DNA from: Camelus ferus
Lineage: Eukaryota
Assembly: GCF_009834535.1 (NCBI RefSeq)
Contig: NC_045696.1
Coordinates: 6,016,001-6,080,000, forward strand
Length of the DNA: 64,000 nt
Reading direction: 5' to 3'
The notes under the pieces are model-generated. The model made no database searches. It was not told the DNA's origin and saw only the letters and a program-made list of their open reading frames with translations. This document shows positions 26,025 to 56,842 of this stretch, piece after piece. Every line of letters starts with the position of its first letter. Within the stretch, counting starts at the first letter, position 1. A program made the translations under genes and the position numbers.

Positions 26025-27330
26025 CACTCCCACTCCTCCACCTGCTCTTCTCTCTCAACCATCCTGGTCCTTCTGGATCAGATGCCCGCGGCCGCCCCCC
26101 GTCAGGAGCTGCCGCACCAGAGATGGCGCCGTGGTCCCCAGAGCCCCAGGGCAGCCCAGCTGCCAGCCAGCTTCTCCTCCCTGAAGCTCTCGATATGGGG
26201 GCCCCGGCCCCCAGTCGTCTGTTGGCCCCAGTCCCACAGGAACCGAGCTGGGGGTGTCAGTGCTCAGGGCCCTGTCATTTCACCCCATTCCCAGTGTGTT
26301 CTCAGCATCTCAGTGACCCAAGAATCACTGAGGGAGACCAGACTTTCCACACTTGTCTCTTTCTCCCTGAGCTCAAAGTGTGAAATACGGGTTTCACGTT
26401 TCACTGGCAACATCATTCTTACCAGCACACCCCACCCCCACTCCATGTCCTGCCGTGGTTTCCTGGCCACCTCAGTGTCACAGCTCAGAGACTATAAATA
26501 GCAAGTCCCTTTTCCAAACGTCCTCTGGTAAATGGCGTGGCCCTGGAAACCAGGCTGCGCTGTCTTCCAGGTGGGAGTGACCGGTAAAATTAAACCTCGG
26601 TTTCTTAATAACTCTCTTTTTCTTTAAACAAAACAAAACAAAAAAACCCATCTCTTTTTCTATGCATACAATTTAGAAATCTTTTCTCTATATACACAAA
26701 TTGTACCTGCATTATTTTTATTTTTTCTTGTTTAACTAAAAATTTTTTCTCTTTAGTTTTACATTTTCCTTTGGTACTGAAATAACAAAATCGCCTTGTA
26801 CATGCTTTGTAGTCTTTCTGTGTGTGTGTAAGTCTGTGTGTAATGTGTGTGTGTGTCCGTATGTGATTATCACCAATAGAAAACTTTTGTTTTCACTTTA
26901 TATAATTGAAAAATGTCTAAACAACAAACGGTATTTTAAACAAAATGATAAAGGTTAAAAATATAATAAAGCAACAAAAAAAGAGAGCAAAATGTCAACT
27001 CCTCTAACTTATCCAATGATTTTAGACCATTTAATAAAAATTTATGAAGTTTGAGTGGTACTGTGATGAAATGGTTTTTTTTTTTTGCATTGTGTTTTAA
27101 AAACAATCTAATTTGTTCAAGCAAATATAAGATTACCTGTACAGATTTCTAATAACAGCTCAGAGAAGATAGAAATGGTTTTCATTATTTCAAATATCTC
27201 TATCCATGTTAAATTCCAATGATGGCTTAAGAAGTAGTGATTTAAATTAAATACATTCCTTACACAATCTTATTCTACAGGATGCAAGACATACGAATAA
27301 ATTATTCATAAGAATCGCATTAAATGAAAC

Positions 27331-27336
27331 TTTATT
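27331..27336 (-). terminator. Candidate polyadenylation signal for retrogene copy A
   Basis: AATAAA about 170 nt after the stop, inside AT-rich UTR-like sequence. Confidence 0.55.
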
Positions 27337-27411
27337 TGAAAAAAACCTTACAAACTATAACTTATAAACTATATGAATGAAAAATCAGTTATGTTACAGG
27401 AGCTAAACTAA

Positions 27412-29604
27412 AAAGAGAAAAATCAAAATTACTTTCAAAAGAGAGCACACGTGCGGATGTTGTGCTGTGGTTGTGAGCGTCTGGACCGGCTGCTGTGAGC
27501 TGAGTCACACCTGCAGGTGACCGCAGGTCCCTGCTCCCTCACCGCGGTGCCCTCCTCCTTCCTGGGGGGCCTGATGGCCCAGGCCCCCCCCCCCCGACAC
27601 TGCCAGTCCCCTGGGGGCTGCGGGCGGAGCAGCAGGAGCACCAGGGCCCCTGGGGGGAGGCTGGACGTTGGATTCGACCTGCGCCAGCATCTGCCGGGTG
27701 CGGTCACTCTCCTGTCGCAGCTCCTGGAGCTTTCTCTTGGTGGCCACCGCCGCCAGCCAGCCTTCCCCAGCTCTTTTCTCTTGGAAGTGGATCTTCTTGA
27801 GGTGGTAGGAGGTGGTTCTCTCCAATTCCTCGCCTGCGTCTTGGGCCATCTTCTTGCAGAGGTTGTGCATCTGACGTGTGGAGTCCAGGTCTCTACACAC
27901 GTGGGTGAGTTGCTTCTCAACTTGTAAGCAGCGAGCTTCCACCTGGGACAACTCTCTGTGAAGCTGCGTCACACAGTCGTCATAGGCGTCAGGCAGACTT
28001 TGAAGCTTCAGCTTCAGCTGCTCAATCTCACCATCGAGCCGGGAATTCTCACCCTTCACAGAGGCTTCTTCTGTTTGGAGACTTGTAACTTGTGCTGTAA
28101 GCTCTTGGATCATCTGCTTTTCTTCCCGCAGGCGCCTGGCTGTCCCCTGATGTTCCTCTTGGGGACGGGGAAGGGGCACACTGCGGCCAGCATCACCAGT
28201 GACACCCTTCAGATCGCCCTCCGCCCCGTGGACAGGGCGATGGCCATCTTCTGCCCCCTCCTTCTGCTGGATGTCTGCGCGCCCGCCACCCGCGGGGCCC
28301 CCACGGAGGCGGGGCGAGGGGCTGGCCTTCAGCAGGTGGTCCGCGACGGATCTGAGTCGGCTGATTCTGTCTTGCAGGACCTGCGCCTTTCCTGCCTTCG
28401 GCCGCTCCAGCCTCCCTCCCAGCTCCTCCTTTCCCTGGACTTGTCGCTCCCTTCTTCCAATTTCTGGGTGAAACCGCTCTGGACTTTCTGAAAAACCAAC
28501 CCTTTTATTCAGATCATTCTTTTCTTTCTTCTGAGCTCGTTCTCCATTCTCCTCTGATGGCTTTAAGGTGTGTTTTCCGTCAGCGACTCGGGAGAGTTGA
28601 GGAGGCTGGCTCTTCAGTGCCTTTTCTATAAAGGCAACATTGCCCTCAAACAATGTCCTTCTCAGGTTTTCTTTCAAGGCCCAAAAGCATAAGACTTTTA
28701 ACAAGGGAGGACTGGCCTCCGGCCCAGGTGGCTTGAGGGCTTCGTGGGCCTGAGTCGTCGGGCCCGTAGCCTCTTCACATTTTCCACAGACTTCGTCTCG
28801 GGCTGAAGACGTTTTTCCAAGCGACCTCCCCCTTCTTAAAGCGTACCGTCCACTTCCTGCCAGGACCAGCACCCCAGCACACACCAGGCTCTCCCAGCGA
28901 AGCACAGGCAGACCCGGGACGTGTGTCAGGCTTTCGTAAACAAGCAGCAGAGCGCCCCACAGGGGCTCCAGGATCAGCTGGAAAGTGGCCCCGCGGGCAG
29001 CCCGCAGGACCTCCATGGCGGCGAGGCCTCCGCAGCTCTGCCTCTGAGGACCAGCGTCCTGTGGGCCCAACTGCCCGCTCAGAACCCTGCGGTGTTCCGT
29101 CTCCAAGGTAAGCAAGCGCCTGCCCGCCAGGGCGGGCAGCTGGGCCGGGGGAGGGGAGGCCAGCCAGGTCCTGGTCCGCAGTTGTCCCTAACGTCGCTGG
29201 CAGTGGAAAGCGACCTCACTTACCCAGGCCCTGGGGGAGGGGGAGGGCTGAGCACAGCCTGGAGCTGGGCCACTCGAGGCCCGCCTGGCCCCACAGCAGA
29301 CCTAGGGGGTCAAAGCAGGGCCAGGCCGGTCCCGTTCTGTGCCTAAGAGGAGGTCAGGGCAGAGTGGTGGGGCCCTGTCCTGGTGAGAGCCAGGCTCCTG
29401 AGTTAAGGGTTCCCTCTGCTGCAGAGACAGCTGGTCCTGCCCCAGAGGTCCTGGGGATCCTCCTCCTCTGAGGCTCCTGCTCCTCTTACGCGTGGTCACT
29501 GTGGGAAGACAGGGGTCTGGACTGAAGGGTGACCCCAAACGTGTAACTGGGACCAGGAATCCATCCTCACAACTCAGGAGACTACACTGGAACTGGCTGG
29601 GTCT
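27412..29604. repeat. Direct duplication, high-identity core, copy A (~2.19 kb)
   Basis: Matches 47889-50082 at offset 20477/20478, about 30 differences counted by eye. Confidence 0.95.
27505..29016 (-). CDS. cTAGE5/MIA2-family (CTAGE-like) intronless retrogene, copy A, intact 503 aa
   Basis: ATG in gccgccATGG at 29016; open to TGA at 27505. ELTAQVTSLQTEEASVKGENSRL...QLHREL...GEELERTTSYH...EKRAGEGWLAA...LRQESDRTRQML aligns from memory with cTAGE5 [23 protein letters not shown]...KLHRKL...EEELERTIHSY...EKKAHDNWLAA...LRKENAHNRQKL; N-terminal WESLVCAGVLVL resembles the cTAGE5 TM WELVICAAVVGF. Confidence 0.82.
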   Translation of the reverse strand: MEVLRAARGATFQLILEPLWGALLLVYESLTHVPGLPVLRWESLVCAGVLVLAGSGRYALRRGRSLGKTSSARDEVCGKCEEATGPTTQAHEALKPPGPEASPPLLKVLCFWALKENLRRTLFEGNVAFIEKALKSQPPQLSRVADGKHTLKPSEENGERAQKKEKNDLNKRVGFSESPERFHPEIGRRERQVQGKEELGGRLERPKAGKAQVLQDRISRLRSVADHLLKASPSPRLRGGPAGGGRADIQQKEGAEDGHRPVHGAEGDLKGVTGDAGRSVPLPRPQEEHQGTARRLREEKQMIQELTAQVTSLQTEEASVKGENSRLDGEIEQLKLKLQSLPDAYDDCVTQLHRELSQVEARCLQVEKQLTHVCRDLDSTRQMHNLCKKMAQDAGEELERTTSYHLKKIHFQEKRAGEGWLAAVATKRKLQELRQESDRTRQMLAQVESNVQPPPRGPGAPAAPPAAPRGLAVSGGGGLGHQAPQEGGGHRGEGAGTCGHLQV

Positions 29605-31469
29605 CATAATTTCGTGGATTCTGTGCAGCCAGCATGTCCCTGTTTAATCCAAGTTTTCCTAGAAGGGGTGACTCTGACAAGGGCTGTGACAGTGTCCCAG
29701 GTTCCTTATGTCCTGTGGCCCTGGCGTATTTGGCTCATGCTTCCCAGTGAGTCTCTAATCCATTCGGTTATCTTCCCACATGGACCTCTGGGGAAGGAGA
29801 GGTCCTTCTTTCTGCTTTATTTGGGCCCATTTATTTCATTAAATCACATCTTGCTCTGCTGACATCTCTCAGGCCACCTGTAGGCTCAGAACTTCCTCGT
29901 CTATCCCCTGGGACTCTGCCGTGACAGGCTGGTCCCCATTCCCTTAGCAAAGAGGGAAATGACAGAATCCTCTGAGGCCAGTCTGAGGGCTCTGACTCAT
30001 AACAGGGCGCAAGAGCCCCGGGGGACAGCGGTGAAGTTGGGCCTCGGGCCCCTCCCCGGGGAAGTCAGAGCCCTTTCACGGCACCAGAGCCAGCCCTGCA
30101 GCTGCAAGTGATGGTTGGTTTTTAAAAAGGGCCTGAAATGGGATCACACATGATCGCATCATGATATTCTCTCCAGCACCAAGCCGGCCCTAACAAGAGA
30201 GAAGCGGAGTTAAAATACTGCCCCAGAAAGAAGTACAGGATATGTCAAAGCTTCAGAGAAACTGGGGTCAGTGGAGGAGGGGGCAGGGCAGCGGCAGTTG
30301 CCTTTGTGATCAGCCTTGTGTGAGTGCTGGAAAATTTAAACTCCATGCATCTAATGCAGCAATAAAGAGTAAAAGTCACTGTCTGGCTCAATCCACAGCT
30401 AATAAATCAAAATCTAGGTGGATCCCTGGACCTAGTATTTTAGTATATTTGTCCTTGTGTCCCCAAGGTGATTGGATACAGAGCCAGGGTGGGGACCACT
30501 GGGTCCTCACAACCATGATGTCACCACGATTTCTTCTACTCCAGGGGTATATCTCTGAGTTATCTCCCCACCAGGGTGTGAGGGGACAGGAGGCAGACCA
30601 TGCTGGTCTTCTGCGTCTTGTCCACATCGGTTTTGTACATTGTCAAGGCCTGTCCCAAGGCCACCTTCACTAAATGCTCGCACAGTGGACGTGTGAACAC
30701 TGGACACGTGACAAAGGGTAGGAGTCTGTGAATTTCCTCGCTGCTCTTCACCAGACACAAGGCTTCCCCCTGCCCTCCGATACTGGCTTGGTCCTGATGA
30801 ATTCTTTTCCCACGTCTGCAAAGGGGAAGAAAATGAGGAACTGTTGGAAGTCTGTCTAAGCCTTAATGGCTTAATTGAAAACAATCTTATTTTGATATAA
30901 CTTCCCTAAACATAGGAATTTCAGTTATAAGAACAAATCCCAAGAACAATCAATGTTTGGACCAAATATGCTTTACATATGCTACAAATATTTATTCTAT
31001 GGTTACTTGTGATAGCAGAAACCTGGAAACAGCACCTACATCCAAACGTCCAAACACAAAGGGAAGCTTCAGTAACTCAGAGGTAGATTCAGGGTGATGA
31101 TGTGTGAGCATGGAGGGTAGAGGAGAGGATTTGGGGAGGGGGGATATGATTAGATACAGCTTATTTTCTGTGAATTTTTGTTTTGAGCAGTAGATTAAAA
31201 GGTGTTTATTACATTACTAAAAATACATACGTACGTACATGAGACATACCTGCCATGCATGGACCAGTGATAAAATTATGCCATGAACTAAAGAATGTAA
31301 TTTATCTAATTCAGAGGACTGGACAAACAAGCAAAAGAAATAGATTGCTGGATAGATAGGTAAGAGAAGGATAGAGAGATGTGACTATCAATACACAAAC
31401 TCATATACACATATAAGTGTATATGTGTTTATATACACAGATTTTATCATATAGCATGGGAAAATAAAA

Positions 31470-34400
31470 ATTTTTAAAATACCTTTTCCAATATCATCCA
31501 AAAACATGAAAAACATAGAAATAACTTAACAGAAGGTATGTATGACCTCTACTGTGAAAATTGTAAAGTGATACTGAGAGATATAAAAGAAAACCTGCAT
31601 AAGCAGAAATAGACACAGCGTTTAAGGTTTAGTGGACAACACTTTATGATGTCAGTTCTCTCTAAATTCACCCATAGCTGCAACGCAATCCCAACCTAAA
31701 CCCAAGCAGGTTTTTAAAAATTAAAGTTGACAAGCTGAGCCTAAAATTTATACAGAAATTCAAAGACCTAAAATAGCCAACACAATCTTTAAGTAAAAAA
31801 ACAAATTTGGAGGAATTAACACATTTTAAACTGACTTCAAGATTTAATACAAAGCTACCATTTTACATCAGCACCGTCCTAGTTAAAGAATAGATAAAAA
31901 TAAGTCAATGGAACCAAATAGAGGTTCCAGAAATAAATCAAACATATATGGTATAATAATTTTTTCAACAGAGATGTCAAAGTAATTCAAAGGAAAAAAC
32001 AACTTTTTTTCCAAAAAAAGTAGAGACAAGTGGATGTAAAGGAATACAGACCTCAACCCCCACTTCACATCATACACGGAAGTTACTCCAGGAGAGAACT
32101 GGACCTAATCATAACAACTAAAGCTGTAAAGCTTCTAGAAGAAAACCTAGGAGAGTAACTGACTTCTTGACTTTGGGGGTGGACATAACTTTACTAGAGA
32201 AAGCAAGCATCTGCAGAAACCACTCAATGTTAAAAAAAAAAAAAATTCCCTGTGATAAACTGAATGTCATCGAAATGAAAACTTCTGCTCATCCAATAGA
32301 CATTATTAATACACTAAACAGAAAATCCACAGACCAGGAAAAGATAGTCCTAGAAGTCTGTTGAGGGACTTCTGCCAACAATGATTTTTTAAAATTACTG
32401 CAGCTCAATAATAAAAATGCAAACAACTCAATTTAAAAGTGGGCAAAAGTCAGAATACCAATGGCACTTTTCATAGAAGTAGAACAAGTAATTCTAAAAT
32501 TTGTATGGAATCACAAAAGACCTCAAATAGTCAAAGTCATTGGGAGAAAGAAGAGTAATGCTGTTGGTATCAGGGTTCCTGATTTTTCACTATACTGCAC
32601 TGCAGGTCTGCAGCGGACAAAACAGACCAGCACTGGTACAAAGACACGGAGGTCAATGGAACAGAACACAGAAATAAACCCATGCTTATATGGCCAGTTA
32701 ATCTATAACAAAGGCAGTGAGAGAATAGAATGGAGAAACTAGAGCATCTTCAATAAACGGTATTGAGAAAACTGGACAGCTGCCTGCAAAAGAATGAAAC
32801 TGAACCACCATCTTACACCATGTACAAAAATAAACTCAAATGGTTTAAAGACTTAATAAGACCCCAAACCATAAAACTCCTAGGAGAAAACATAGGCAGT
32901 AAACTCTTTGAACTTGGTCTTAGTAATATTTTTTGGATCTGTCTCCTCAGGCAAGGTCAACAAAAGCCAAAAAAAAAAAAAAAAATCAAAAACAAAAACA
33001 GAAAAACGAGCAAAGAAACCTCCAAGAAACAAATGGAACTACGTCAAACTAAAAAGATTTTGCACAGTGTAGGAAATCATCAACAAAACAAAAAAGCAAC
33101 CCAATGAATGGGAGAAGATATTTGCAAACGATATACCCAAAAGGAGCCAATATTCATAATTATCAGAGACTGCAAAGCTACAGTGAGATATCACCTCACA
33201 CCTGTCAGAACAGCTATCATCAAAAAGAACACAAATCACAAGTGTTAGTTAAGGATGTGGAGAAAGGGGAACCCTTGTGCACTGCTAGTGGGAATGGAAA
33301 TTGATGCAGCCACTATGGAAAATGGTGTGGAGGTTACTCAAAAAATTAAAAATAGATCTAGGATAGGATTTAGCAATTCCACTTCTGGGTATTTACCTAA
33401 AGAAAACAAAAACACTAATTCAAAATATAAATGCACCCTTATGTTCACTGCAGATAATTTAAAATAGCCAAGATATGGAAGCAACCTAAGTGCCCATCAA
33501 TAGATGAAAGAATAAAGAAGATGTGGTATATATACATACAAGGAAATATGGCTCAGTTATAAAAGAGAATGACATCTTGCCATCTGCGACAACACAGATG
33601 GAGCTAGAGAATATTATGCTAAGTGAAGTCAGACAAAGACAAATACTATGTGATTTCACTTAGATGCAAAAATTTAAAAGAAAGAAAGAAAGAAACAGAA
33701 AGAGATTTATAGATACAGAGAAAAAAACTGGTGGCCACCACAGGGGAGGGGGTGGTCAGGGATTGGGCAAAATAGGTGAAGGGGATTAAGAAGTAAAACT
33801 TCCAGTTATAAAATAAGTAAATCATGGGAATGTAATATACAACATGAAAGATGGCCAACATAAGGAATATAGTAATACATTTGTATGATGACAGATTGTT
33901 ACTAGACTTATCATGGTGATCATTTTATAACGTATTTAAATGTTGAATCACCTGTTGTACATTTGAAACTAACGTAATATTGTATGTCAACTAGATTTCA
34001 ACAACAAAATAAGTAATTAATTAAAATGGGCAAAAGACATGAAGAGACACAATGCCAGACAAGATATACGGCCAGTATGGATGTGAGAAGACTTTCGACA
34101 CCATTACTCATCAAGGAAAGGCAGATAAAAAACCCCTCTGATATACTACTATACCCCTGTTAGAATAGCTGAAGTGAAAAAACATTGGCCAGATGAAGAA
34201 TTGCAGAGTATGTGGAGCGGCCAGAACATTCACTCATTTCTGTTGGGAGTGTAAAATGATACAGCCACTTTGGAAAACTGATTGGAAGTTTCCTAAAACC
34301 ACAAACATACATCAACCCTATGATGTTCAAGTCAATAACCAGAAACATGAAAACACAAGTTCACGAAGAGCCCTGCAAAAAAAATGTTGATAGCATCGTT

Positions 34401-34720
34401 ATTCATATTAGCTCCAAACCAAAAACAGCCTCCATGCTTATGTACTTGGGATGGATAACCAAATTATAGTATATCCAGACAGTGGTCAACAACAACAAAA
34501 AATGGGCCAGATCTCTGAAACACATGACATCGTGGATGAATTGCAAAAGCATCGATCTGAGTGAGAGAAGCAGACACAGGAAGAGAGCATAGTGTATGCA
34601 GACATTTATGAAGGTCTAGATCAGGCAAAACTAATTTGTAGCAACAGAAATGAGAACAGGGGTTATTTCTAGGATAGTGAAAATTGATCTGAAAGGGGAC
34701 AGAGGAACTTTCTGGATTAT
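31470..34720 (+). mobile_element. Old L1 ORF2/3' region interrupted by a younger L1 3' segment (about 32450-34020)
   Basis: L1 ORF2-like translations (ILKFVWNHKRPQIVK); imperfect TSD aaaa(g)tgggcaaaag at about 32435 and 34023. Confidence 0.8.
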
Positions 34721-35974
34721 GAGAACATTTTAAAATGACATTTATTGTTTTCTTTCTAGTTTTACAAGCAATACCTGCTCACTGCCGACAACTAGAAATA
34801 CATAAAAGCGTAAAGTAAAAAATTAACAATCACCTATATCCCCCACCCTTATCATTATCATTTCCTCCCAGTATCTGCATATTTCTTGTTTTTTCCTTCC
34901 AGCTTTACTGAGATGTAATTGGCATACAATATTGTGTAAGTTTAAGGTACACACCATAATGATTTGACTTATATACGTCATGAGATGATTATCACAGTTA
35001 GTTCAGTGAACATCCATCATCTCAGACAGACACAAAATTTAAGAAATAGAAATTTTTTTTTTCCTTGTGATGAGAACCCTTAGGATTTAGTCTCTTAACA
35101 GTTTTCACGTCTATCCTACAGAAGCATTCACTGTGTTTATCTTTTTAGACAACACATCTCTAATACTGCTCGATCTTACAACTGGAAGTTTGTACCTTTT
35201 GACTGCCTTCATCCAGTTCCCCTTCCCCCCACACCCCTGATAACCACAAATCTGATCTCATTTTCCGTGGCGTTTTTTTTTGTTTGTTTTAGAAGTATCA
35301 TTGACCTACAATGCTACGCTAGTTCCTGTTACACAACATAGTGATTCAAGATTTCTGTACATTTCAACATAATCGCCACGATAAGTTTAATTATCGTCTG
35401 TCACCAAATACATTACATAATTATTGACTATATTCCCCACACTGTACATTTCATACCTGTGACTCAATTATTTTGCAACTGGAATTTTGTACCTCTTAAT
35501 CTCCCTTAGCTGTTTCTCTCCTTTCCTCACCCTCCCCCGCTCTGATAACCTTCTGTTTGTACTCTATCTACAACTCTGTTTCTGCTTTGTTATTTTGTTT
35601 GTTGTTATTTGGATTCCATATATAAATAAATTCATACGGTATTTGTCCTTCTCGCTCTGACTTATTTCATTTAGCATAATATCCTCTAGATGTATCCGTA
35701 TTGTTGCAAATGGCAAGGTTTTCATTATTTTTTATGGCTGAGTTATATTCTGTTGTATATATGTGTGTGTGTAAATATACATATACATGTATCTCACATC
35801 TTCTTTATTTCCTCTTTTGATAGGCACTTTGGTTGCTTCCATATCTTGGCTATTGTAAATAATGCTGCAATGAACATAGGGGAGCATTCATTTTTTTTTT
35901 AATTAGTGTTTTTGTTTTCTTCAGATAAATACTGAGGAGTGGAATTACTGGATAATATGGTAGTTCTATTTTTT

Positions 35975-36317
35975 TAATTTTTTAAATTGAAGTATAGTCA
36001 GTTTGCAATGTTGTGTCAATTTCTGGTGTACAGCACAATGCTTCAGTCATACATGGCTATACATATATTCAATTTCATATTCTTTTTCACTGTAAGCTAC
36101 TATAAGATATTGACTATGGTTCCCTGTGCTATCACTCATATGTGGAATCTAAAAAATAAAAAGACAAATGAACTTATTTATAAAACAGAAACAGACTCAC
36201 AGACATAGAAAACAAATTTATGGTTAATGGGGGGAAGGGGGTGGGAAGGGACAAATTGGGAGTTTGAGATTTGCAGATACTGACTGGTATATATAAAATA
36301 GATAAACAAGTTTACAC
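35975..36317. mobile_element. 5'-inverted (twin-primed) L1 3' end insertion
   Basis: Minus-orientation tail to 36132, then the adjacent L1 segment in plus orientation; flanked by tctattttt duplication. Confidence 0.8.
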
Positions 36318-38118
36318 TCTATTTTTAATTTTTTGAGGAATCTCCACACCATTTTTCATAGTGAACCATTTTGCATTGCCGCCAACAGTGCGCAAGGGTT
36401 CCCTCTGCTCCACATCCTCACCGGCACTTGTGATTTGTTGTCTTTTTGATGACAGCCATTCTGACAGGTGTAAGCTGATATCTCACTGTGGTTTTGACTT
36501 GCATTTCCCTGATGATTAGTGATATTGAGCATCTTTTCATGTGCCTGTTGGCCATTTGTATGTCTTCTTTGCAAAATACATAATTACCTTCTCTGTCCAT
36601 TGTTTAATTAGATTTTTATATTGAATTCTATAAGTTCTTTATATATTTTGTGTATTAACCCCTTAGCGGACATATTTACAAATATCTTCTCCCATTAAAT
36701 AGGTTGCCTTTTTGTTTTGTTGATGGTTTCCTTTCCTGAGCAAAAACTTTTTAATTTGATTTGGTCCCATTCGTTTATTTTTCCCTTTGTTGCCCCTGAC
36801 TGAGGAGACAGATCCAAAAAAATACTGCTGAGATCAATGTTTTCTATGTAGAGTTTTACGGCATCAAGCCTGACATTTAAGTCTTTAATCCATTTTGATC
36901 TTATTTTTGTGTCTGGTGTGAGAGATGATCTAATTTTTTTCTTCCACGTGTGGCTGTCCAGTTTTCCCAACACCGCTTATTAAAAGAGACTGTCTTTTCT
37001 ACATTGTATATTCTCGCATCTTTCGTCACGGATTAATTGACCAAATGTGTGTTGGTTTTTTGCTGGGCTTCCTGTTCTGTTCCATTGATCTACGCGTCTG
37101 TTTTGTTTTGTTTTTTTGCCAGGACCATAGTGTTTTTATTTGTAGTACAGTTTGAAATCTGGAAGCACCATACCACCAACTTTGTTTTTTGTTTTGTTTT
37201 TGTTTCTTTCTAAAGATCTCTTTGGCTATTCAGAGTCACTTACGATTTCATACAAATTTTAAGATGATTTGTTTTAGTTCCATGAAAAATGCCGCTGGTA
37301 TTTTGATAGGGATTGCATTGAATCTGTAGATTGCTTTAGGTATTATGGACATTTAACCACGTTAATTCTTCTGATCCGTGAACATGGGATATCTTTCCAT
37401 TTATTTATGTTGTCTTCAATTTTTTTCTTCTATGTTTCATAGTTCACAAGGTACAAGTTTTTCACCTCCTTGGTTAATTTATTCCTAGGTATTTTATTCT
37501 CTTTGATTCAGTTGTAAGTGAGATTGTGTTCTTGATTTCTCTTTCTAATAGTTCATTACAAGTGTTTAGAAATGCAAGAAAGTTCTGTATAGTAATTTCA
37601 TGTATTGCAACTTCACTGAATTCCTTTCTTAGTTCTAATAGTCTTCTGGTTGCATCTTTCGAGGTTTCTACATATAGTATCATGTCATCTGAAAATAGTG
37701 ACAGACGTGACTCCGTGACTCCCTTTCCAATTCAGACAACATATCTCTTTTTCTTGTCTGATCACTGTGGCTAGGACTTCCAATACTATGTTAAATAGAA
37801 GCGCTGAGAGTGAGCATCCTTGTATTGTCCCTGACCTCACAGGAAAAGTTTTTAGCTTTTCACCATTGAGTATGATCTTAGCTGTTTCATCATAAATGGC
37901 CTTTGTTATGTTGAGGATTTGATAATCAAGGTATGCTGTCTTCACAGAATGAGTTTGCAAGTATTTCCTCCTCTTCAATTTTTTGGATTAGTTTGAGAAG
38001 AAAAGACATTAATTCTCCTTTAAATGTTTGTTAGAATTCCCCTGTGAAGCTGTCTGGTCTTGGACTTTTGTTTGTTGGTTTTTTTTTTTTTTTTTTTTTT
38101 TTTTACTGATTCAATTTC

Positions 38119-38299
38119 TTCTTTCTTTCTTTTTTTTAATCTTTATTTTATTTTAAATTTATTTATTAATTTTTTATTTTGGGGGGATGTAATTAGTTTT
38201 ATTTATTTATTTATTTTTAGAGGGGGTCCTGGGGATTGAACCCAGGACCTTGTGTGTGCTAAGCATGCACTCTACCCCTTGAGCTATACCCTCCCCCCT
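38119..38299 (-). mobile_element. Vic-1-like SINE nested in L1, 12-bp TSD
   Basis: Same head on the minus strand; TSD tgattcaatttc at 38107-38118 and 38300-38311. Confidence 0.9.
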
Positions 38300-41572: not shown

Positions 41573-42070
41573 TTCACTGTGTGTGAAGTTGGGAACAAAG
41601 CACATAGGTTGCACAGCCAAGAGCAGCCACTGAGTCCTGGGAGACACTTTCTTGACTGGAATATGGTCCTTGCTAAAAAATATAGCTGGTTCCATCTCAC
41701 AATAATGAAAGCAGCATTATATGAAAATCTAGACGAGAGTTATTCAAAAGTATGTTAGTTTATGTAGACATTGTCTTCGTTTTATTGTCTTGTCCGAAAT
41801 CTTCAGTTTACAGAACACTGCCAATATCCATTTGCATTTTTGCATAAATCTGACTTTTCCATAAACTGTGATCTATTCATGTTCTTGGGAAAATGTCTGT
41901 TAAATGCTTAGTGAGGTAATCTTTTCCACACATTTCTGATACAGGAGCCATGGACAGTGCTGTCAGGGAAACAGGTGATGCTGGAAATAGGTTACTCTGA
42001 GGACAGTTCATAGATGAAGGTGCTGTTCAAACAGGTATGGGTGGAGCAGGACTGCAGGGCATAAGGCATC

Positions 42071-42525
42071 TGTGGGGTGGGCTGAGTAATGGCCCCCGTA
42101 ACAACACCCACTTCCTAACCCCCAAACCTGTGCGTAGGTTACCTGACATATGGCAAAAGGGACTTTGCAGATGTGCGAAGGATCTTGAAATGGGGAGATT
42201 TTCCTGAGCTATTCAGGTGGTTCTAAATGTGACCACAAGGGTCCCTGTAAGAGGGAGGCAGGAGAGTCAGTGATGCTGTGATGACAAATGCAGAGATCAG
42301 TGAGCCGGAGAGAGATGGGAAGATCACATGCTGCTGGATTTGACGATGAAGAAAGGGGCCACAAGCCAAGGAGTGTAGGAGCCTCCAGAAGGATCCAGCC
42401 CTGCCAACACCCTGACTTTAGCCCAGTGAGACTGATTTTGAGATTTTTGACCTCCGGATGTGTAAGGAACAAGTTCTCTAAGCCTCCCAGTTTGTGGTGA
42501 TGTGTTACAGCAGCTGCACTAAGCT
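42071..42525 (+). mobile_element. MLT1D-like MaLR LTR
   Basis: aatggcccc...ggcaaaagggactttgcagatgtg...aggggccacaagccaagga...tttgtggtgatgtgttacagcagc. Confidence 0.8.
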
Positions 42526-42869
42526 AGCCGTGGCATCACCTGGGCTGCCTGCTGTGGGCAAGTCAGCGCCCTGGGCCAGAGGGAACCGAGGGAAGAGCTG
42601 TTGGTGTAACCCCGAGGAAGAGTCGTGTAGAGTCAGCCCCTTAAGAGCAGAGTGTTTCTCAGCCCGTGGACAGAGCCAGCTCATGGCCACCTGGTCAAAT
42701 GCAGCAAGAGATCCAGTGACCTAGCCTCATCTTCCCACTTCCCTCCAGTCCCCTGCTGGGCTCCCCATTACTGAACCCAAAGGAAGCTGGAGGAGCGGGC
42801 ACCCAGCTGAGGTGGGTGCCCCACAGATCAGCAACGCAGGAGGAGAGAGAGTGGAAATGAAAATACCAT

Positions 42870-43675
42870 GAACTGTGTGTGAGGGGCTTGGAAATCATCA
42901 CTCTGCCCTGAGAACAAGTGAAAAGATGAACAAAATGAAAAATTACAACTCTTCTTAAATATGTCAGAGTAATGAGGTCACAGGGAAAATTGCTGCTCCC
43001 AAAATTGGAGAGACAGGCAGGCAGGCACAGAGAGTCACTACTTAACCAGCGTAGACTCTCAGGAGCAGAAATCTCCCTGGAAACCAACACTGGGGTAGGA
43101 AAACCTGATGGATGAATCACTGGTGGCTGAGTAGGGACAACTCTGAGGGTTAAACATCCAGGTGAATCCAATGGAATATTACTCAGCACTGAAAAAGAAA
43201 TGAGCTAGGAAGCCATGAAAAGATATGGAGGAAAATTAAAAACATACTACTGAGTGAAAAAGTCAGACTAAGAAAGTTACACCCTATATGAATCCAGTTA
43301 CATGGCATCCTGGAAAAGACAAAACTAAGGAAACAGTGAAAAGGTCAAGGTTGCCAGCATTTGGGGTGGGGGTGAACAGGCCGAACACAGATTTTTAGGA
43401 CACCAGAAATACTCTGTATGACACTGTCAAGATGGACACATGTCATTATGGTGTTTGTCAAAGCTCACAGAATGTCCAGCACCAAGAGTGAGCCCCAGTG
43501 TCTTGGGGACAGGAAAGGGTCATTGCAGGTTCAAATGTACCTCTCTGGTGGGGGGTGGTGACAGGGAGGTTTTGAGTGTGTAGGGACAGGGGATGTAAGG
43601 GGACTCTATGCACTTTCTACTCAGTTTTGCTATGCACCCAAAGTGCTCTAAAATTAAAGCTTATTCATTATTAAA
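42870..43675 (+). mobile_element. L1MC-like fragments (5' piece plus 3' end)
   Basis: aatggaatattactcagcact...actctgtatgacactg...caccaagagtgagccc...ctctaaaattaaag. Confidence 0.7.
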
Positions 43676-45189
43676 ATCGTAACCTTAGTGTCATGGGCCC
43701 TGAGAATTGAGTGGGGGGACCCGAGTTGTGACTCAGAGGAAGACGCACAACTTTTCAACACATTAGAGTCGAGTCCCCACTACAGTGACTCCCCGTCTCT
43801 GCTGCGCATCAGAATCGTGAGAGGATCTTGGAATAAATACAGGTGTCCTGGCCCCTCACGGGACAGCAACTCCCCGCGAGGGGCCCCGGGTGGGAGTTAC
43901 TGCCGCCTTGTCTTCCTACGAGCACTTTTTTACCTTGAGACTCAAGATCTAACTTCACCACAAAATGCTATTGAGTCTGAGTCCAACAGGTGAATCGTTT
44001 GTCTATAATTCCCGTGACTTTTGCATCACATGAACTTTGCATTAGAATGGGCTCTTGTGAAAGGGTTTTCAAGAACAGTCTCCTGAATCGACAGTAAACT
44101 GGAGGGGCCTTAACTGCAACCCTAGTGTACTTGGTGTTGTGTTTACCTGACACGTTACCTGGCTTTTGTTGAGACCTTTTCCAAACTAGAATAGCTTTTA
44201 ATTAGGAAGTTAAGACTGCAGAATCATCTTAACTAAAAATATGGTGTTGCCCTATTGGTTAAGTTGGCAAAAAAAAGTGGTGCTTTTTTGACTCCATTGG
44301 CTGCATTCAGATTTAAATTTAAATCATTTGATCACATTTTGCATGAGCTTATATATTTTGAGAAAATGTGGCAGTTCCTTTTGAAAGGTTTGAACTCAAG
44401 TGAGCCATTCATTTTGTGGCCATATAACTATTGTCGTAACTGGAACAATTTTATGAGTGAAGAGGGCAGCTGTCAGTTACATGCAGGCATAAATTAAGCA
44501 CCCCTGGAATTATCCAGGCTGCAGTGGGCGCTGCTCTTCCTTGCTGTACATGACCCAGGGCCAGGAGAAGGGGGACCAAGGTCAGGGGTCGGCTGCACCT
44601 TCATCCCACGCGTGCCAAGGTCTGGCTTCATTCTGGCCATGCTCAGGTCGTGGGATAAAGGGATGACTCCGGCTGCTGGGAGGAGACACAAGGGAAGAAG
44701 TATGGAGACGTGGGGCCCAAGTAGGATGGACGGTCACAGGAGTGACAGTGATCTAAGGCAGAGGGGTGGTTTGCACTGGAGGATGGTGGCTGAGACTGAG
44801 GGAAAACACAGGGAGTTTGGAAGAATCTTCTATGGACTCAGTGATGGAGTGGACGTAGTGGGTGAGGAACTAGGATCAGGTCAGAAGGGGTCCTCAGGTG
44901 TCTGGACTGAGCAAGAGAACAGACATGGGTTACCTCCTGACACAGGGGATTGTGGAGGTCTAAGAGGGTTGTCCACGCATGGCTCCCTCAAGGGCAACTG
45001 CCGATTGGAAGTTCATCGTGCTCTTCTGAAACGAGGTGTGTCCTCAGGGGACAGTGCACCTGTCTAAGTTATAGATCAGATCGGCCAGGTTGTCCATGCC
45101 TTCTGGTCTGTGCCTGGGCTCAAGCCAGAAATGCCATGGCCCCCTTTCTTTTCTCCCACACTCCTTCCCCACCGTCACCTAAAGATCTT

Positions 45190-45335
45190 TGCTCATCCAC
45201 TTCTCTACCCAACTTCAGCATTACCAGTGAGCAGTGCAGGACTCAGGAGGACCCAACACCTGATGAATCAGAATCTGCTTTGTGACAAGATCTCCAAGGG
45301 ATTCACAGGCCCCTCCAAGTGTGGAAAGCCCTGTA
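45190..45335. mobile_element. MER5A-like hAT fragment
   Basis: tgaatcagaatctgctttgtgacaagatctccaagggattc...aagtgtggaaagccctg. Confidence 0.55.
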
Positions 45336-47888
45336 GAGAACTCCTGCTGGTGCTTCAGTACTCAGCTCAGGGCCACCTCCCCCAGGGAGCCCTCCCTGAC
45401 CTCCCACCTCACCCGAGGTTGCTGCAGGCAGTCTGGGCGCCGGTGCAGAGCCAACAGTGAGTGTGTAGGCCTCCTTCACCGAGCACTCCTGGGCCCGGGT
45501 CCGTCTCTCCACAGCCCGCACACCCTGCTGGAGGAAACCTAGGGTTCACCTTGGTCTCCCCACGAGTAGCGCCCTCACAGCTCCACTCGGGTAGCCAGCG
45601 CCTCACACTTGGGAATCCTCCCCCTCCCCTCCAGCCCCTCCCGTACCTGCCCTTGGAGTCCCTGTGGTGGGACCCCCAGGGGTGAGACCACTGATCCCGA
45701 GGGCCGTCAGGGATGGCAGACACCTGGGGAGCCCAAGTGCTCGCCTGCTCAACCCTCTGTGCCCCAGAGACGCAGGCTTTCACGGGGTGTCATCTTGCTG
45801 AGTTTTTTTTTAGGATTCTCATGCAGAAGTTTTACTCATTTGCTTGTAGAGCAAACATACATGGCATTCTTAGAAAAAGTCTGAGTTGTTCTTCATTCCT
45901 CCCCTCTGACCCTCAACCAACAAAACGCAGCCCCATCTGTCCTCCTCCTCAGTCTTTGTGACAACCCCCCGGCGCAGCCCCCAGTGCTCCACGCAGACCC
46001 CTGTGAGCCCCCTTCCTCCAAACTCCCCCCTCCCCCCACCCCACCTTCCGCTCTCTCCCCGCCCACAGAGACCTGTGTAGGATACACATCACTCCGTGTC
46101 CTCGGCCTCCAGCCCTCTCCCCCAGGTCTGCACCCTCCCTGGTGTCCCTACCCTGCGCTAGAGAGATGTCTGTGCAGCGGGCCTGCTCCCCGTCCCCCTC
46201 TCCCCCTCCCCGTCCTCTTTGCCCCATTTCCCTGCCCAGAAACCCAGTTCTCAGGTCTCTATACTCCTGTCCTCTCTGCCTGGAGTATTCTGCCCCCTGA
46301 CTTTCCCAGGCCAACTCCTCTTCCCTTTTAAAATCTCAGCATAAATACCACCTCCTTGGTTTCGCACGTTGCGCGTCACCCACTGGAGCTGTCTGCAGGG
46401 CAGAGATTGCCATCCTTTGTCTCTTTTTCTTTATTCTCTGAACTCGTCCCTCCCCGGGTCCATGGGGAGGGGGCCACAGGCCTCACCTGGCTGCCTTTTT
46501 CCATCACTCCAACACCTATACGTTGTCAAAGGTCACAGACACTCCAAACATACTAAATAAGTGGATGTGAATGAAGGCAATAGACACACACACACATTGG
46601 ATCAAATAGGGTCAAGTGTGCTGGTCGTTCTCCAGGTTCTATGCGCCTTTTCTGGGCTGCTCTGCACCGGAGGCTGACTCCTGCCGGCCCTCCCCGGGCC
46701 CCCTGGGTGGCTGCCTTTTGCTCCAGCAGTAAAAGGAGGGACAGGACAGAGGCGGGGAAGGTTTCCCTGTCCCTCTGACGCCCCTCGCTGAGCTCAGATG
46801 CCGTCTTCGCCCCTCATCCTCCAGACCCAGCAGTGAGAAGAGCTTCCTTACTGCCGGCACCTCACAGCCCTCTTCCTCGGTCCCCCCGCATCCCTGGTGC
46901 AGCTCAGGTGACTGCCTGCATCTCAGCGCCCTCGGCTGCACCGTTTGGATGAAGGGTTTCTAGTTGGACCCTTACTGAATCATCAGGTACCTCTCATTTT
47001 CTGTCGATATGATCTATGAATCTTTTGTCTATATACAAATTATATACCAAAACAACACCATTTTTATTTTCAACATTTATTTAGTCACTTAAAAAAATGA
47101 AACTCTAACTTTACATTTTCAGCTACCCACAAAGCAACTGAATAGGCTGAGTATCTGTACTGTGGTTGGCGTGTGTGTGTCTGCCATCAAGAGAACACTT
47201 TTAAATTTTGACTTCATAAATTTTAGAAATGTAAAAAAAGAGAAAACTTTTTAACAAAATAACAACAGTTAAGAAAAAAAATTACAAAACAGAAAGACAC
47301 GGCTGCAAAATCTAAAGTACTCCAACCTGTGAGTTTAGGATTAATCTAATCCGATGAATTTAGGACTAAACTGTGAATTTAGGCGTACACTAACAAAGAT
47401 TACCTAGTTTGAACGTGGTGCTATTTTGTTAACATATTTGTTTTGTTTTTTTTTTTTGTTTTTACATTTTTTAAAATCAACAGAAGTTGACTAAGGTAAG
47501 TGTTAAATTACCTCCTCAGTTTTGTAAAACTAGCCATTGCATACAGAAATGGTCTTTATTGTGTTCAACTTTTCCATTCATGTCAGACTTAATGGATGCT
47601 TCAAGTCATCGTGGGCATTCAACTCAAATCAAAATAAAATACTTATTATGTGTCCATGAGAATTATACTATTGGGTCTACATTTAAATAACACTACCATA
47701 GAGTTTTCATGCTATTCTAATAAGAGTAATTGTGGCATCAATTTAGCAATAGTAGCTTAACTAAGGAAGGAACAAACGAAATCCCTTCAACAGAAATACA
47801 TGCAGATGGATATGAAAATTTGAGAAAATCTTATAAATTAAGTTTTATCTACTTAGAAAAGAACAATTAAGTTATAGTAGCTAAATAT

Positions 47889-50082
47889 AAAGAGAAAAAT
47901 CAAAATTACTTTCAAAAGAGAGCACACGTGCGGACGTTGTGCTGTGGTTGTGAGCGTCTGGACCGGCTGCTGTGAGCTGAGTCACACCTGCAGGTGACCG
48001 CAGGTCCCTGCTCCCTCACCGCGGTGCCCTCCTCCTTCCTGGGGGGCCTGATGGCCCAGGGCCCCCCCCCCCGACACTGCCAGGCCCCTGGGGGCTGCGG
48101 GCGGAGCAGCAGGAGCACCAGGGCCCCTAGGGGGGAGGCTGGACGTTGGATTCGACCTGCGCCAGCATCTGCCTGGTGCGGTCACTCTCCTGTCACAGCT
48201 CCTGGAGCTTTTTCTTGGTGGCCACCGCCGCCATCCAGCCTTCCCCAGCTCTTTTCTCTTGGAAGTGGATCTTCTTGAGGTGGTAGGAGGTGGTTCTCTC
48301 CAATTCCTCGCCTGCGTCTTGGGCCATCTTCTTGCAGAGGTCGCGCATCTGACGTGTGGAGTCCAGGTCTCTACACACGTGGGTGAGTTGCTTCTCAACT
48401 TGTAAGCAGCGAGCTTCCACCTGGGACAACTCTCTGTGAAGCTGCGTCACACAGTCGTCATAGGCGTCAGGCAGACTTTGAAGCTTCAGCTTCAGCTGCT
48501 CAATCTCACCATCGAGCCGGGAATTCTCACCCTTCACAGAGGCTTCTTCTGTTTGGAGACTTGTAACTTGTGCTGTAAGCTCTTGGATCATCTGCTTTTC
48601 TTCCCGCAGGCGCCTGGCTGTCCCCTGATGTTCCTCTTGGGGACGGGGAAGGGCACACTGCGGCCAGCATCACCAGTGACACCCTTCAGATCGCCCTCCA
48701 CCCCGGGGACAGGGCGATGGCCATCTTCTGCCCCCTCCTTCTGCTGGATGTCTGTGTGCCCGCCACCCGCGGGGCCCCCACGGAGGCGGGGCGAGGGGCT
48801 GGCCTTCAGCAGGTGGTCCGCGACGGATCTGAGTCGGCTGATTCTGCCTTGCAGGCCCTGCGCCTTTCCTGCCTTCGGCCGCTCCAGCCTCCCGCCCAGC
48901 TCCTCCTTTCCCTGGACTTGTCGCTCCCTTCTTCCAATTTCTGGGTGAAACCGCTCTGGACTCTCTGGAAAACCAACCCTCTTATTCAGATCATTCTTTT
49001 CTGTCTTCTGAGCTCGTTCTCCATTCTCCTCTGATGGCTTTAAGGTGTGTTTTCCGTCAGCGACTCGGGAGAGTTGAGGAGGCTGGCTCTTCAGTGCCTT
49101 TTCTATAAAGGCAACAGTGCCCTCAAACAATGTCCTTCTCAGGTTTTCTTTCAAGGCCCAAAAGCATAAGACTTTTAACAAGGGAGGACTGGCCTCCGGC
49201 CCAGGTGGCTTGAGGGCTTCGTGGGCCTGAGTCGTCGGGCCCGTAGTCTCTTCACATTTTCCACAGACTTCGTCTCGGGCTGAAGACGTTTTGCCAAGCG
49301 ACCTCCCCCTTCTTAAAGCGTACCGTCCACTTCCTGCCAGGACCAGCACCCCAGCACACACCAGGCTCTCCCAGCGAAGCACAGGCAGACCCGGGACGTG
49401 TGTCAGGCTTTCGTAAACAAGCAGCAGAGCGCCCCACAGGGGCTCCAGGATCAGCTGGAAAGTGGCCCCGCGGGCAGCCTGCAGGACCTCCATGGCGGCG
49501 AGGCCTCCGCAGCTCTGCCTCTGAGGACCAGCGTCCTGTGGGCCCAACTGCCCGCTCAGAACCCTGCGGTGTTCCGTCTCCAAGGTAAGCAAGCGCCTGC
49601 CCGCCAGGGCGGGCAGCTGGGCCGGGGGAGGGGAGGCCAGCCAGGTCCTGGTCCGCAGTTGTCCCTAACGTCGCTGGCAGTGGAAAGCGACCTCACTTAC
49701 CCAGGCCCTGGGGGAGGGGGGAGGGCTGAGCACAGCCTGGAGCTGGGCCACTCGAGGCCCGCCTGGCCCCACAGCAGACCTAGGGGGTCAAAGCAGGGCC
49801 AGGCCGGTCCCGTTCTGTGCCTAAGAGGAGGTCAGGGCAGAGTGGTGGGACCCTGTCCTGGTGAGAGCCAGGCTCCTGAGTTAAGGGTTCCCTCTGCTGC
49901 AGAGACAGCTGGTCCTGCCCCAGAGGTCCCGGGGATCCCCCTCCTCTGAGGCTCCTGCTCCTCTTACACGTGGTCACTGTGGGAAGACAGGGGTCTGGAC
50001 TGAAGGGTGACCCCAAACGTGTAACTGGGACCAGGAATCCATCCTCACAACTCAGGAGACTACACTGGAACTGGCTGGGTCT
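47889..50082. repeat. Direct duplication, high-identity core, copy B
   Basis: Matches 27412-29604. Confidence 0.95.
47982..49493 (-). pseudogene. cTAGE5/MIA2-family retrogene copy B, disrupted
   Basis: Near-identical to copy A, same Kozak ATG at 49493; 1-bp deletion in a G run (~48651), CGA>TGA at 48193-48195, 1-bp insertion at 48129. Confidence 0.85.
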
Positions 50083-50574
50083 TGTAATTCTTGGATTTTG
50101 TGCAGCCGTGTTCAATCCAAGTGTCCCTGTAAGGGGCTGTCTCTGCTCGGGGTGATTCAGTGACCTGGGCTCCTTCCCTCCTGTGTGGCTCATACCTCCC
50201 CAGGTGGCCCCTGAGCGGGTCTCCAATCAATTAGCACCCCCCACCCAGAGGTGGGCCCTGGGATGGGGACCAATACTCTGCTGCCTCAGGGTTCCATCTT
50301 TCATTTTGTTAAACCACATCTCTCACTCCTAACGTCTCTCTGGCAGACCCAGGCTCAGAACCTCCTTGTCTATCCCCGGGTGTCTACCATGACCTACTGG
50401 CCCCCAGTCCCTTATCCAAGAGGGAAGGGAGATAGCAGTCAGCTGAGGCCAGTGTCAGGGGTGGTCCTCTGGGTGCCAAGGCTCAGGCTGCAGGGACCCC
50501 ACAGAGGGAGAGGACAGAGGCTTGGTGGTAAGAGGAGGAGGCAGCTGTGACCTAATGTGAGAATAGCTTCCTTG

Positions 50575-56626: not shown

Positions 56627-56842
56627 TCAGTCCTCCGTGTCCGGCTGGACGCCCAGGATGGCGTGCAGCTCCTCGGGCGTGAAGCCCAGCAAGTTCTGCA
56701 GGTCGCACACGAAGCGGTACACGTAGCGCTTCCCTGACGTCTTGTGGATGATGTTCTTGTCGTAGTAATAGCGCAAACCCCGGCTCAGCTTCTCGTAGTT
56801 CATCTTGGGCTTGTTTTTCCTCTTTCCCCACCGGCGGGCCAC
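56627..56842 (-). CDS. ETS2: ETS2 last coding exon, C-terminal half of ETS domain to stop
   Basis: [71 protein letters not shown]; the C-terminus GVQPDTED indicates ETS2 rather than ETS1; acceptor tcccccag|GTG; TGA at 56627-56629. Confidence 0.98.

Follow-up and report, generated by a model that had tools for sequence, protein, structure and literature searches.

The window, by which we mean the whole 64-kb stretch of camel DNA that was analysed, contains one long direct repeat only (self-BLAST, 27380-29989 versus 47858-50460), the two units of which, copies A and B, are present in the same orientation 20.5 kb apart and downstream of ETS2. ETS2 is recognised by the Ets domain of its last coding exon and by further exon frames, one of which (59499-59765) matches ETS2 of C. 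dromedarius at 100% identity. The 64-kb window has no additional, more diverged copy of the duplicated unit. The locus comprises the following features.

26651..27411, downstream (3') flank of copy A, AT-rich (GC 0.26), homologous to B 46992-47888
26717..26722, minus strand, AATAAA motif within the A-B homology, ~65 bp from its left limit (motif scan); counterpart in B at 47063-47068 (motif scan)
27331-27336, second AATAAA in copy A (motif scan)
27412..29604, homogenised core of copy A, delimited by its 31 differences to B, change-points and short-read contig ends
27505..29016, minus strand, intact single-exon ORF of copy A, 503 aa (ORF list)
29017..29604, minus strand, upstream non-coding part of the A core, GC 0.66, CpG o/e 0.35
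29223, candidate splice donor in the upstream part of copy A
29605..29989, upstream flank of copy A, homologous to B 50083-50460
46992..47888, downstream flank of copy B
47889..50082, homogenised core of copy B
47982..49493, minus strand, coding region of copy B, pseudogene
50083..50460, upstream flank of copy B
56630..56845, minus strand, last coding exon of ETS2 (Pfam Ets, E=6.7e-20)
57645-57818, 59499-59765 and 63521-63799, other ETS2 exon frames

The core ORF is, as judged from its sequence, an intronless retrogene derived from cTAGE5/MIA2. The copy A protein matches Camelus proteins labelled CTAGE5-like or MIA2 at 95-97%, its residues 1-467 align with residues 1-513 of raccoon-dog MIA2 isoform X4 (26%, E=2e-29), and a profile search recovers MIA2. 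The coding region is a single ORF of 1512 bp without introns, and the parent gene cTAGE5/MIA2 is presumably multi-exon. Of the features of a functional cTAGE5 ER-export receptor, the proline-rich C-terminal domain is absent from copy A, the alignment stopping at MIA2 residue 513 of 806, while an N-terminal hydrophobic segment (residues 35-54, best 19-residue hydropathy mean 1.57) is borderline for a transmembrane segment. In Pfam, copy A gave only weak coiled-coil matches, none better than E=0.02, and the N-terminal piece of copy B gave no match. The AATAAA at 26717..26722 may serve as the polyadenylation signal; no remnant of a poly(A) tail was seen after the terminal AATAAA of copies A and B, decay being expected at such an age. 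A 5' intron beginning at the candidate donor 29223 is unsupported, as the joints listed in 29163-29255 are also present in DNA runs (three of four rows) and none of them matches this donor; nor was an RNA-only joint found among those listed from short-read contigs in the upstream part of copy A.

Copy B is now a pseudogene. It carries a 1-bp deletion near 48650, a nonsense codon at 48193-48195 and a 1-bp insertion at 48129, and tblastn recovers its coding region as two pieces. In C. ferus, protein EPY73080 terminates at the nonsense codon of copy B and likewise has M421 and K428 of this copy.

CTAGE6 and other primate CTAGE retrogenes (PMC2386082, PMC2394760) share with the camel gene the parent, CTAGE5, and the origin by retroposition; the CTAGE5 retrogene treated in PMC2394760 is termed primate-specific there. 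In contrast, the camel family is boreoeutherian, located at ETS2, ~500 aa in length, devoid of the proline-rich domain and merely 26% identical to MIA2/cTAGE5. Names of the type 'cTAGE family member 6/15-like' were assigned automatically in databases and do not denote orthology.

Similarity between the copies occurs in two tiers. Between the cores, 27412-29604 in A and 47889-50082 in B, 31 differences were counted over 2193 positions, of which 28 are substitutions and 3 are one-base indels, an identity of 98.6%. Change-point fits place the left edge at 27412 (range 27409-27418) and the right edge at 29605 (range 29599-29605), with lnL gains of 28 and 68, respectively, and a difference rate changing from 1-2% inside to 28-30% outside. 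Beyond the edges, the left flank (26651-27252 / 46992-47629) is 70.9% identical over ungapped columns, with a score of 220 compared to a mean of 38 and a maximum of 59 in 200 dinucleotide shuffles (z=37), and the right flank (29611-29989 / 50088-50460) is 75.9% identical, with a score of 216 and a shuffle maximum of 36 (z=60). Chance likeness of AT-rich flanks is ruled out by the shuffles and by seven of seven AT-rich control stretches at z<=2.1, and with the same shuffle scoring no A-B homology was detected past the flank ends (z=0.6 and 0.7). K2P distances between A and B are 0.013 in the core, 0.29 in the right flank and 0.37 in the left flank, the last value probably being inflated through misalignment (60 transitions, 102 transversions); the left flank nearest the core, 27253-27380, is interrupted by large indels. 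Neither a tandem repeat nor an Rfam family was found at the core edges. Differences are evenly distributed within the core, where the longest stretch of identity measures 306 bp (p=0.28), and no patchwork of differently aged tracts was found inside it; the even spread is thus equally compatible with one last sweep.

These values bear out the preliminary description, which had given a ~98-99% identical core with abrupt edges and diverged homology on both sides, and the flank alignments, on whose significance it had made its reading depend, are significant. Its outline of the tract as the CDS plus ~590 bp upstream is correct upstream, where the homogenised tract of A extends 588 bp 5' of the ATG, but falls short at the other end, as the tract also includes 93 bp 3' of the stop codon.

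The edges were also observed in short-read contigs mapped to the window, comprising DNA runs X1 and X2, which represent two organisms and two studies, together with further runs, among them X16, X18 and two RNA libraries. In both X1 and X2, a zero-difference contig from the A left flank reaches 30 bp into the core before it stops, and the A right-flank contig of X2 begins 30 bp inside it, an overlap which is one below the 31-letter bridging threshold; the junctions seen are both edges of A and the left edge of B. The loose end before 27412 in X1, X2 and X18 consists of the last 30 bases of the B downstream flank. Near-identical core contigs are present at 2.4-4.0 times single-copy depth, which hints at three to four near-identical copies, beyond the two in the window. 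The pair would thus be part of a larger set, and conversion may have had a donor elsewhere in the genome. Run X16 has no cover at 27068-27184, a gap given no weight here.

A third camel paralog (record 13 of run X16; single-copy depth of 9.9 in X1 and 14.1 in X2) permits comparison of flank and core by difference counts taken from the contig mapping table. Within 29842-30081, 22 of 240 bases of the third paralog depart from A (~91% alike) whereas B, the homology of which ends at 29989, differs from A at 32 of 145 aligned bases (~78%), a difference in closeness to A significant in the upstream flank by Fisher's test (p=0.0007). The A upstream flank is common to the third paralog at ~91% to at least 30081. 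In the core stretch 29179-29366, conversely, the third paralog has 23 differences to A in 188 positions while B has 0 in 188 plus one indel, and the likeness of the third paralog to the A/B core is only 86-88%. Thus, in the flank the third paralog groups with A, whereas in the core A and B form a pair to which it is external, indicating that flank and core histories differ, as conversion predicts.

Same-contig pairs are also found in dromedary (KAB1283269/70), hippo (XP_057552428/9, 486 of 504 aa identical), reindeer (CAI9176099/106, 474 of 483) and jackal (LOC144301943/944, 497 of 508). Camel A shares 58-59% identity with the hippo proteins, 51% with those of reindeer and 43-44% with those of jackal; over orthologous proteins of other mammals as a whole, the range is 36-59%. 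Clustering of cores by species had been predicted, and in the tree, which was constructed from proteins only, all four same-contig pairs (camel, hippo, reindeer and jackal) cluster by lineage with support 1.0. Alternatively, independent recent tandem duplications could account for the pairs in hippo, reindeer and canids. Within the C-terminal 133 columns, three informative sites join both dromedary copies against both window copies while one groups by locus; the three are located next to a G-run in predicted gene models and span no more than 14 codons, and may represent one tract or an error. A search of metagenome contigs for locus DNA of relatives gave 120 pattern matches, none of which was confirmed.

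Conversion may be GC-biased. Counting amino-acid-changing sites only, the A/B branch has 25 AT-to-GC versus 9 GC-to-AT changes, compared to 6 versus 13 on the branch of the EPY83705 paralog (p=0.004, or 0.011 with a second outgroup). The bias is absent relative to a second camel paralog, KAB1254226 (11:6 versus 6:5, p=0.70; 0.68 in a further comparison).

Two-tier identity, incongruence of flank and core with the third paralog, same-species protein pairs and branch points in independent reads were all observed and, with the significance of the flanks, support what had been proposed, an ancient duplication in which the core of the two copies was homogenised. We consider it probable that the two copies arose in tandem long ago and have been subject to recurrent interlocus gene conversion. 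A cTAGE5 (short MIA2) mRNA would have been inserted on the downstream side of ETS2 by retroposition, earlier than the radiation of Boreoeutheria, a timing suggested by tree-shrew synteny, and a ~3.4 kb DNA segment, the gene with ~1 kb upstream, would then have been tandemly duplicated ~70-90 My ago, an age estimated from the divergence of the flanks and a general substitution rate. Each direct copy would time and again have served as template for break repair in the other, by non-reciprocal exchange, until indels and substitutions in the flanks exceeded the limit tolerated by strand invasion and mismatch repair for pairing. The exchangeable zone would have contracted to a 2.19-kb island with edges now fixed and sharp, within which coding, synonymous and upstream sites would be homogenised alike and drift toward G/C, GC bias being the putative cause. 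The last full homogenisation may have occurred ~3 My ago, after which B would have gained two frameshifts and the stop. Only tentatively do we extend this to a boreoeutherian family of cTAGE5-derived retrogenes at ETS2, in which camelids, hippos, deer and canids may each, independently, have maintained a tandem pair under continuous conversion over 70-90 My, the protein diverging to 43-59% between lineages partly via GC-biased conversion, with dispersed non-converting sister copies in camel and probably further near-identical copies outside the window.

It is unlikely that a single recent conversion put the A core over a long-diverged B with no long-term concerted evolution. The uniform differences along the core are in keeping with such an event, as is the similar likeness of A to the third paralog, at 86-88% for the core and 86-91% for the flank, a pattern expected after transfer from A to B. 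However, mismatch-repair anti-recombination opposes conversion between strongly diverged sequences, making a 2.2-kb tract between ~25% diverged sequences unlikely, and near-identical pairs recur in four other lineages, a GC-ward excess is observed on the long A/B branch and sites are common to both dromedary copies only.

Recurrent conversion is also preferred to a reciprocal origin of the same mosaic, either by cycles of unequal crossing-over (three-unit expansion followed by contraction at another breakpoint) or by double crossover, for which we see a small likelihood. An expanded A-B haplotype would double the A right flank, yet the X2 depth of this flank is single-copy (9.89 versus 9.9-14.1 in other contigs of single-copy sequence, a rough depth from few animals). 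In its favour, the copies are direct repeats, the core depth hints at additional copies and the end product would be indistinguishable from conversion in one haplotype.

Conversion templated by RNA, from a cDNA of one copy's transcript, is very improbable. The tract is centred on the CDS of a retro-derived gene family and core contigs were found in two RNA libraries, but it ends 93 bp past the stop, before the nearest AATAAA (27331-27336), and reaches 588 bp 5' of the ATG, whereas a cDNA would favour the 3' end. Summed RNA contig depth, a poor expression measure, falls from 255-269 (28823-28939) to 18-40 (29057-29173), near the ATG. Just as improbable, and largely refuted already, is an assembly or polishing artefact in which reads of one copy overwrote the core of the other. 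The short-read contigs of X1 and X2, which come from two other studies, have their branch points precisely where the core begins and ends, which argues against an assembly artefact, core contigs exceed single-copy depth, B-specific derived states recur in C. ferus record EPY73080 and the dromedary assembly carries its own adjacent pair. Consistent with an artefact, the read evidence consists of short reads, and at 28204 both window copies have A while most contig depth of four runs has G; however, 18 of 102 of the X1 depth is without this G. Purifying selection alone, which the extent of the conserved zone across CDS and likely promoter might suggest, is refuted by synonymous-site identity, as A versus B pN/pS is 0.93 with a synonymous distance of just 1.6%, upstream DNA of the core (5 differences in 588 bp) is as alike as the CDS, B is disabled and orthologous proteins of other mammals are so divergent from A; thus, selection is not what keeps the copies similar.

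The process reconstructed here, interlocus gene conversion, is a textbook one. According to PMC5865164, HSPA1A/HSPA1B are an intronless tandem pair across placental mammals, argued to be >100 My old, in which paralogs cluster by species via repeated gene conversion and variation gathers in the UTRs. The camel pair is similarly an intronless old tandem pair clustering by species; however, Hsp70 is under strong purifying selection while the camel gene is fast-evolving (43-59% identity across the lineages that have a pair), with one of its two copies in camel dead and a distance of 20.5 kb between them. TPRX1/TPRX2 resemble it as fast-evolving, repeatedly homogenised duplicates with a fixed breakpoint; PMC8208926 describes these as non-adjacent boreoeutherian duplicates homogenised in many lineages including Camelus ferus, with GENECONV fragments of 9-492 bp. 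There the 5' homeobox part is favoured, whereas in camel the entire CDS plus 588 bp upstream is affected. HBB-to-HBD conversion in laurasiatherian beta-globin clusters overwrote coding and proximal upstream sequence while the flanks keep locus identity (PMC4041002), and the flank-versus-core partition test applies to both sets of old tandem paralogs; the globin tracts are, for their part, directional and alter expression of a known protein.

A cTAGE5-derived mammalian locus at ETS2 is apparently undescribed. Gene conversion of CTAGE retrogenes was not found in the openly accessible literature, genome-wide conversion or retrocopy tables in supplements or subscription journals being places where the locus could be listed. 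Among the matches listed for CTAGE gene conversion, as titles and abstract starts, all are human, and nothing relevant was found linking CTAGE with ETS2 and PSMG1, or ETS2 with dog CFA31.

The locus offers a natural experiment, with a converting pair with base-sharp edges and dispersed non-converting paralogs in the same genome, extended by parallel pairs in several mammal lineages, and could be used to measure erosion of conversion zones and the reshaping of a fast-evolving protein by GC bias. It is also a warning that duplicates may look young yet be very old, and short-read variant calls and automatic 'cTAGE-like' names are unreliable at the camel locus. It indicates, in addition, that mammals possess a gene family next to ETS2 which is as yet uncharacterised. 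Dog and cattle family members may be linked to ETS2, as chromosome lengths suggest, and in tree shrew ETS2 and a family member are both present on one scaffold of 3,916,490 bp.

Self-BLAST detected a single long direct repeat in the window (27380-29989 against 47858-50460), comprising copies A and B of a cTAGE5/MIA2-derived gene. In the base-level alignment the core (27412-29604 in A, 47889-50082 in B) carries 31 differences in its 2193 bp, 28 substitutions and 3 one-base indels. Change-point fits located its edges to within 10 bp (27409-27418 and 29599-29605), the A-B difference rate rising across them from 1-2% inside to 28-30% outside. The left flank, downstream of the gene, is 70.9% identical over ungapped columns and the right, upstream flank 75.9% (z=37 and z=60, respectively, against 200 dinucleotide shuffles). 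Beyond both flanks no A-B similarity above dinucleotide shuffles was observed, and AT-rich control stretches gave no signal in 7 of 7 cases in the same test. K2P distances are 0.013 in the core, 0.29 in the right flank and 0.37 in the left, the last likely inflated through misalignment. The near-identical core, abrupt edges and diverged but real flank homology of the preliminary description are therefore upheld. A-B homology stops ~65-70 bp beyond a common AATAAA (26651-26722 in A, 46992-47068 in B), which puts the left boundary of the duplication unit almost at a plausible transcript end.

Logan contigs were placed on 26600-30100 from 4 of 24 listed runs. X1 and X2 are DNA runs from different organisms and different studies, X16 and X18 are RNA runs, and in these four runs further camel paralogs are observed at 86-88% identity in the CDS and at single-copy depth. 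A third paralog (X16 record 13, its variants matched in X1 and X2) tracks the upstream flank of A to at least 30081, its likeness to A reaching beyond the end of A-B homology. Within 29842-30081 it differs from A at 22/240 bases, compared with 32/145 aligned bases for B (p=0.0007), whereas in the core stretch 29179-29366 it shows 23/188 differences from A and B shows zero substitutions. Downstream, a second paralog contig tracks A from 27297 with at least 5 substitutions and at least 2 indels, compared with 27 mismatches and 66 gap columns for B. These counts would group the flanks as ((A, third), B) and the core as ((A, B), third), a conflict which rules out a single recent duplication, a conclusion the preliminary description had already drawn from the two-tier pattern. 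In 4/4 runs a single-copy paralog links 26975 and 27297 on opposite strands, indicating that part of its 3' flank is inverted with respect to copy A. Pieces of the upstream core at 29137-29327 are matched at other loci too; the joints there leap over 70-85 bp, and depth in X1 climbs to 75.8. This region would be a 5' or promoter element occurring more widely in the genome.

The coding content of the two cores differs as follows.
27505-29016, minus strand: copy A ORF, intact, single exon, 503 aa
near 48650, minus strand: copy B lesion, 1-bp deletion
48193-48195, minus strand: copy B lesion, CGA-to-TGA stop
48129, minus strand: copy B lesion, 1-bp insertion
Copy B is a pseudogene, which extends the initial account. 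The copy A protein is closest to proteins of Camelus ferus and C. dromedarius (94-97%) named CTAGE5-like or MIA2. It also aligns with raccoon-dog MIA2 isoform X4 from residue 1 (26% over 467 residues, E=2e-29), stopping before the proline-rich domain. The cTAGE5/MIA2 parent gene has many exons; this alignment and the single-exon ORF identify the core gene, at the level of sequence, as an old cTAGE5-derived retrogene. Both RNA libraries contain core contigs, and one of the two carries the label reproductive system (X16 record 9, at a depth of 80 compared with 2.5-8.6 in upstream flank bins). This hints at expression of the core, on either strand and from any of the copies.

Same-contig pairs are also found in dromedary (KAB1283269/70), hippo (XP_057552428/9, 486/504 aa alike), reindeer (CAI9176099/106, 474/483) and golden jackal (LOC144301943/944, 497/508), identity to camel A being 58-59% in hippo, 51% in reindeer and 43-44% in jackal. 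A FastTree tree built from 30 proteins (460 columns, partial dromedary models excluded) groups every one of the camel, hippo, reindeer and jackal pairs by lineage with support 1.0. Independent recent duplications are a possible origin of the pairs in other species, where the comparison rests on proteins. In the last 133 columns, 3 sites separate the two dromedary copies from the two window copies and 1 groups by locus, a weak signal from sites next to a G-run in predicted models. Cattle DAA33738 shares 43-54% identity with the other members in the comparison and falls outside the camel-hippo-reindeer clade of the tree; it may represent an old paralog to which conversion did not extend.

Combined, the flank/core incongruence, the species-clustered protein pairs and an A-B pN/pS of 0.93 support the earlier proposal of an old duplicate pair with a core homogenised by conversion. 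Recurrent DNA-level conversion would operate between direct repeats 20.5 kb apart, with tract edges held at positions where pairing is prevented by indels and divergence in non-coding DNA; this divergence-threshold model is established and is discussed in PMC8208926. No patchwork of tracts is visible inside the core, the 31 differences being evenly spread (p=0.28). Amino-acid changes on the A/B branch comprise 25 AT-to-GC and 9 GC-to-AT, while the corresponding counts on the branch of the dispersed paralog EPY83705 are 6 and 13 (p=0.004, or p=0.011 when another outgroup is used). Compared instead with the partial paralog KAB1254226, the GC-ward excess lacks significance (p=0.70). Substitutions accumulate at ~2e-9 per site per year, a rate at which the duplication would be 70-90 My old judging by its flanks, the third paralog 20-30 My old and the last full homogenisation ~3 My old. 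If exchange was recurrent, no direction can be assigned to the transfer. A single conversion event, crossover cycles and cDNA templating are minor alternatives. Selection was rejected as the cause of A-B identity, given the pN/pS value, upstream core DNA matching as closely as the CDS and the disabled state of B.

That the near-identity of the cores is an assembly artefact is very unlikely. A contig equal to the A left flank (27140-27441) terminates exactly 30 bp into the core in both X1 and X2, a loose end before 27412 in X1, X2 and X18 equals B flank 47859-47888 in every letter, and in X2 an A right-flank contig (29575-29871, zero differences) starts 30 bp into the core. Such stops are explained by a 31-mer assembly graph in which a pair of flanks runs into common sequence; the 30-bp reach is one base under the tool's bridging rule, and the junctions among the rows listed are A left, B left and A right. 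Near-identical core contigs have depths of 41.3 (X1) and 35.6 and 27.9 (X2), 2.4-4.0 times the single-copy means of 10.4 and 11.5. A dromedary assembly carries its own adjacent pair, and the derived M421, K428 and stop of B recur in C. ferus protein EPY73080, although this agreement may not be independent of the assembly behind the window. Contig depth, a rough measure, suggests three or four near-identical cores in the genome, and C. ferus models EPY73080 and EPY82504 represent at least three mosaic versions; extra copies may be collapsed or situated beyond the window. At synonymous sites 28204 and 28342, A and B share a letter unlike most contig depth in four runs (at 28204 the other letter has 84.2 of 102.2 depth in X1 and all depth in X2, X16 and X18). 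The shared letter may be a very recent variant passed from one copy to the other; contigs drop variants, so it may also exist in X2, X16 and X18.

The pair sits in a gene-poor stretch downstream of ETS2, whose exons lie 6-14 kb past copy B on the strand of the retrogene.
56630-63799, minus strand: ETS2 3' exons (Pfam Ets E=6.7e-20; exon 59499-59765 100% to dromedary ETS2)
A profile search yielded 600 representatives at E<=0.001; ten were examined, and the named single-ORF members among them (~470-530 aa) belong to donkey, a bat, canids, tree shrew, sifaka and raccoon dog. Tree-shrew ETS2 and the tree-shrew family member share a scaffold of 3,916,490 bp, and the gene was therefore probably at this locus before the Euarchontoglires/Laurasiatheria split; the family, a further addition to the preliminary description, is probably boreoeutherian. 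Family records in dingo (39.83-Mb contig) and cattle (158.3-Mb contig) may be ETS2-linked, judging from chromosome lengths.

The camel pair is a new example of an already known process. Similar patterns are described in the portions consulted for HSPA1A/HSPA1B (PMC5865164), TPRX1/TPRX2 (PMC8208926) and HBB/HBD (PMC4041002); unlike these, as presented there, the camel pair combines whole-CDS homogenisation, a very fast-evolving retrogene and a dead partner. No publication on the locus or on conversion in this gene family was found in the literature covered, which lay outside subscription journals.

The spacer between the copies contains an inverted AT-rich repeat pair (32642-34008 and 35283-37099, 64-82% alike), probably LINE-1 fragments judging by composition. 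A tRNA-derived short repeat, probably the camelid SINE, occurs in three copies.
2137-2249: tRNA-derived short repeat
38197-38299: tRNA-derived short repeat, Rfam tRNA match at 38221-38293
51240-51349: tRNA-derived short repeat
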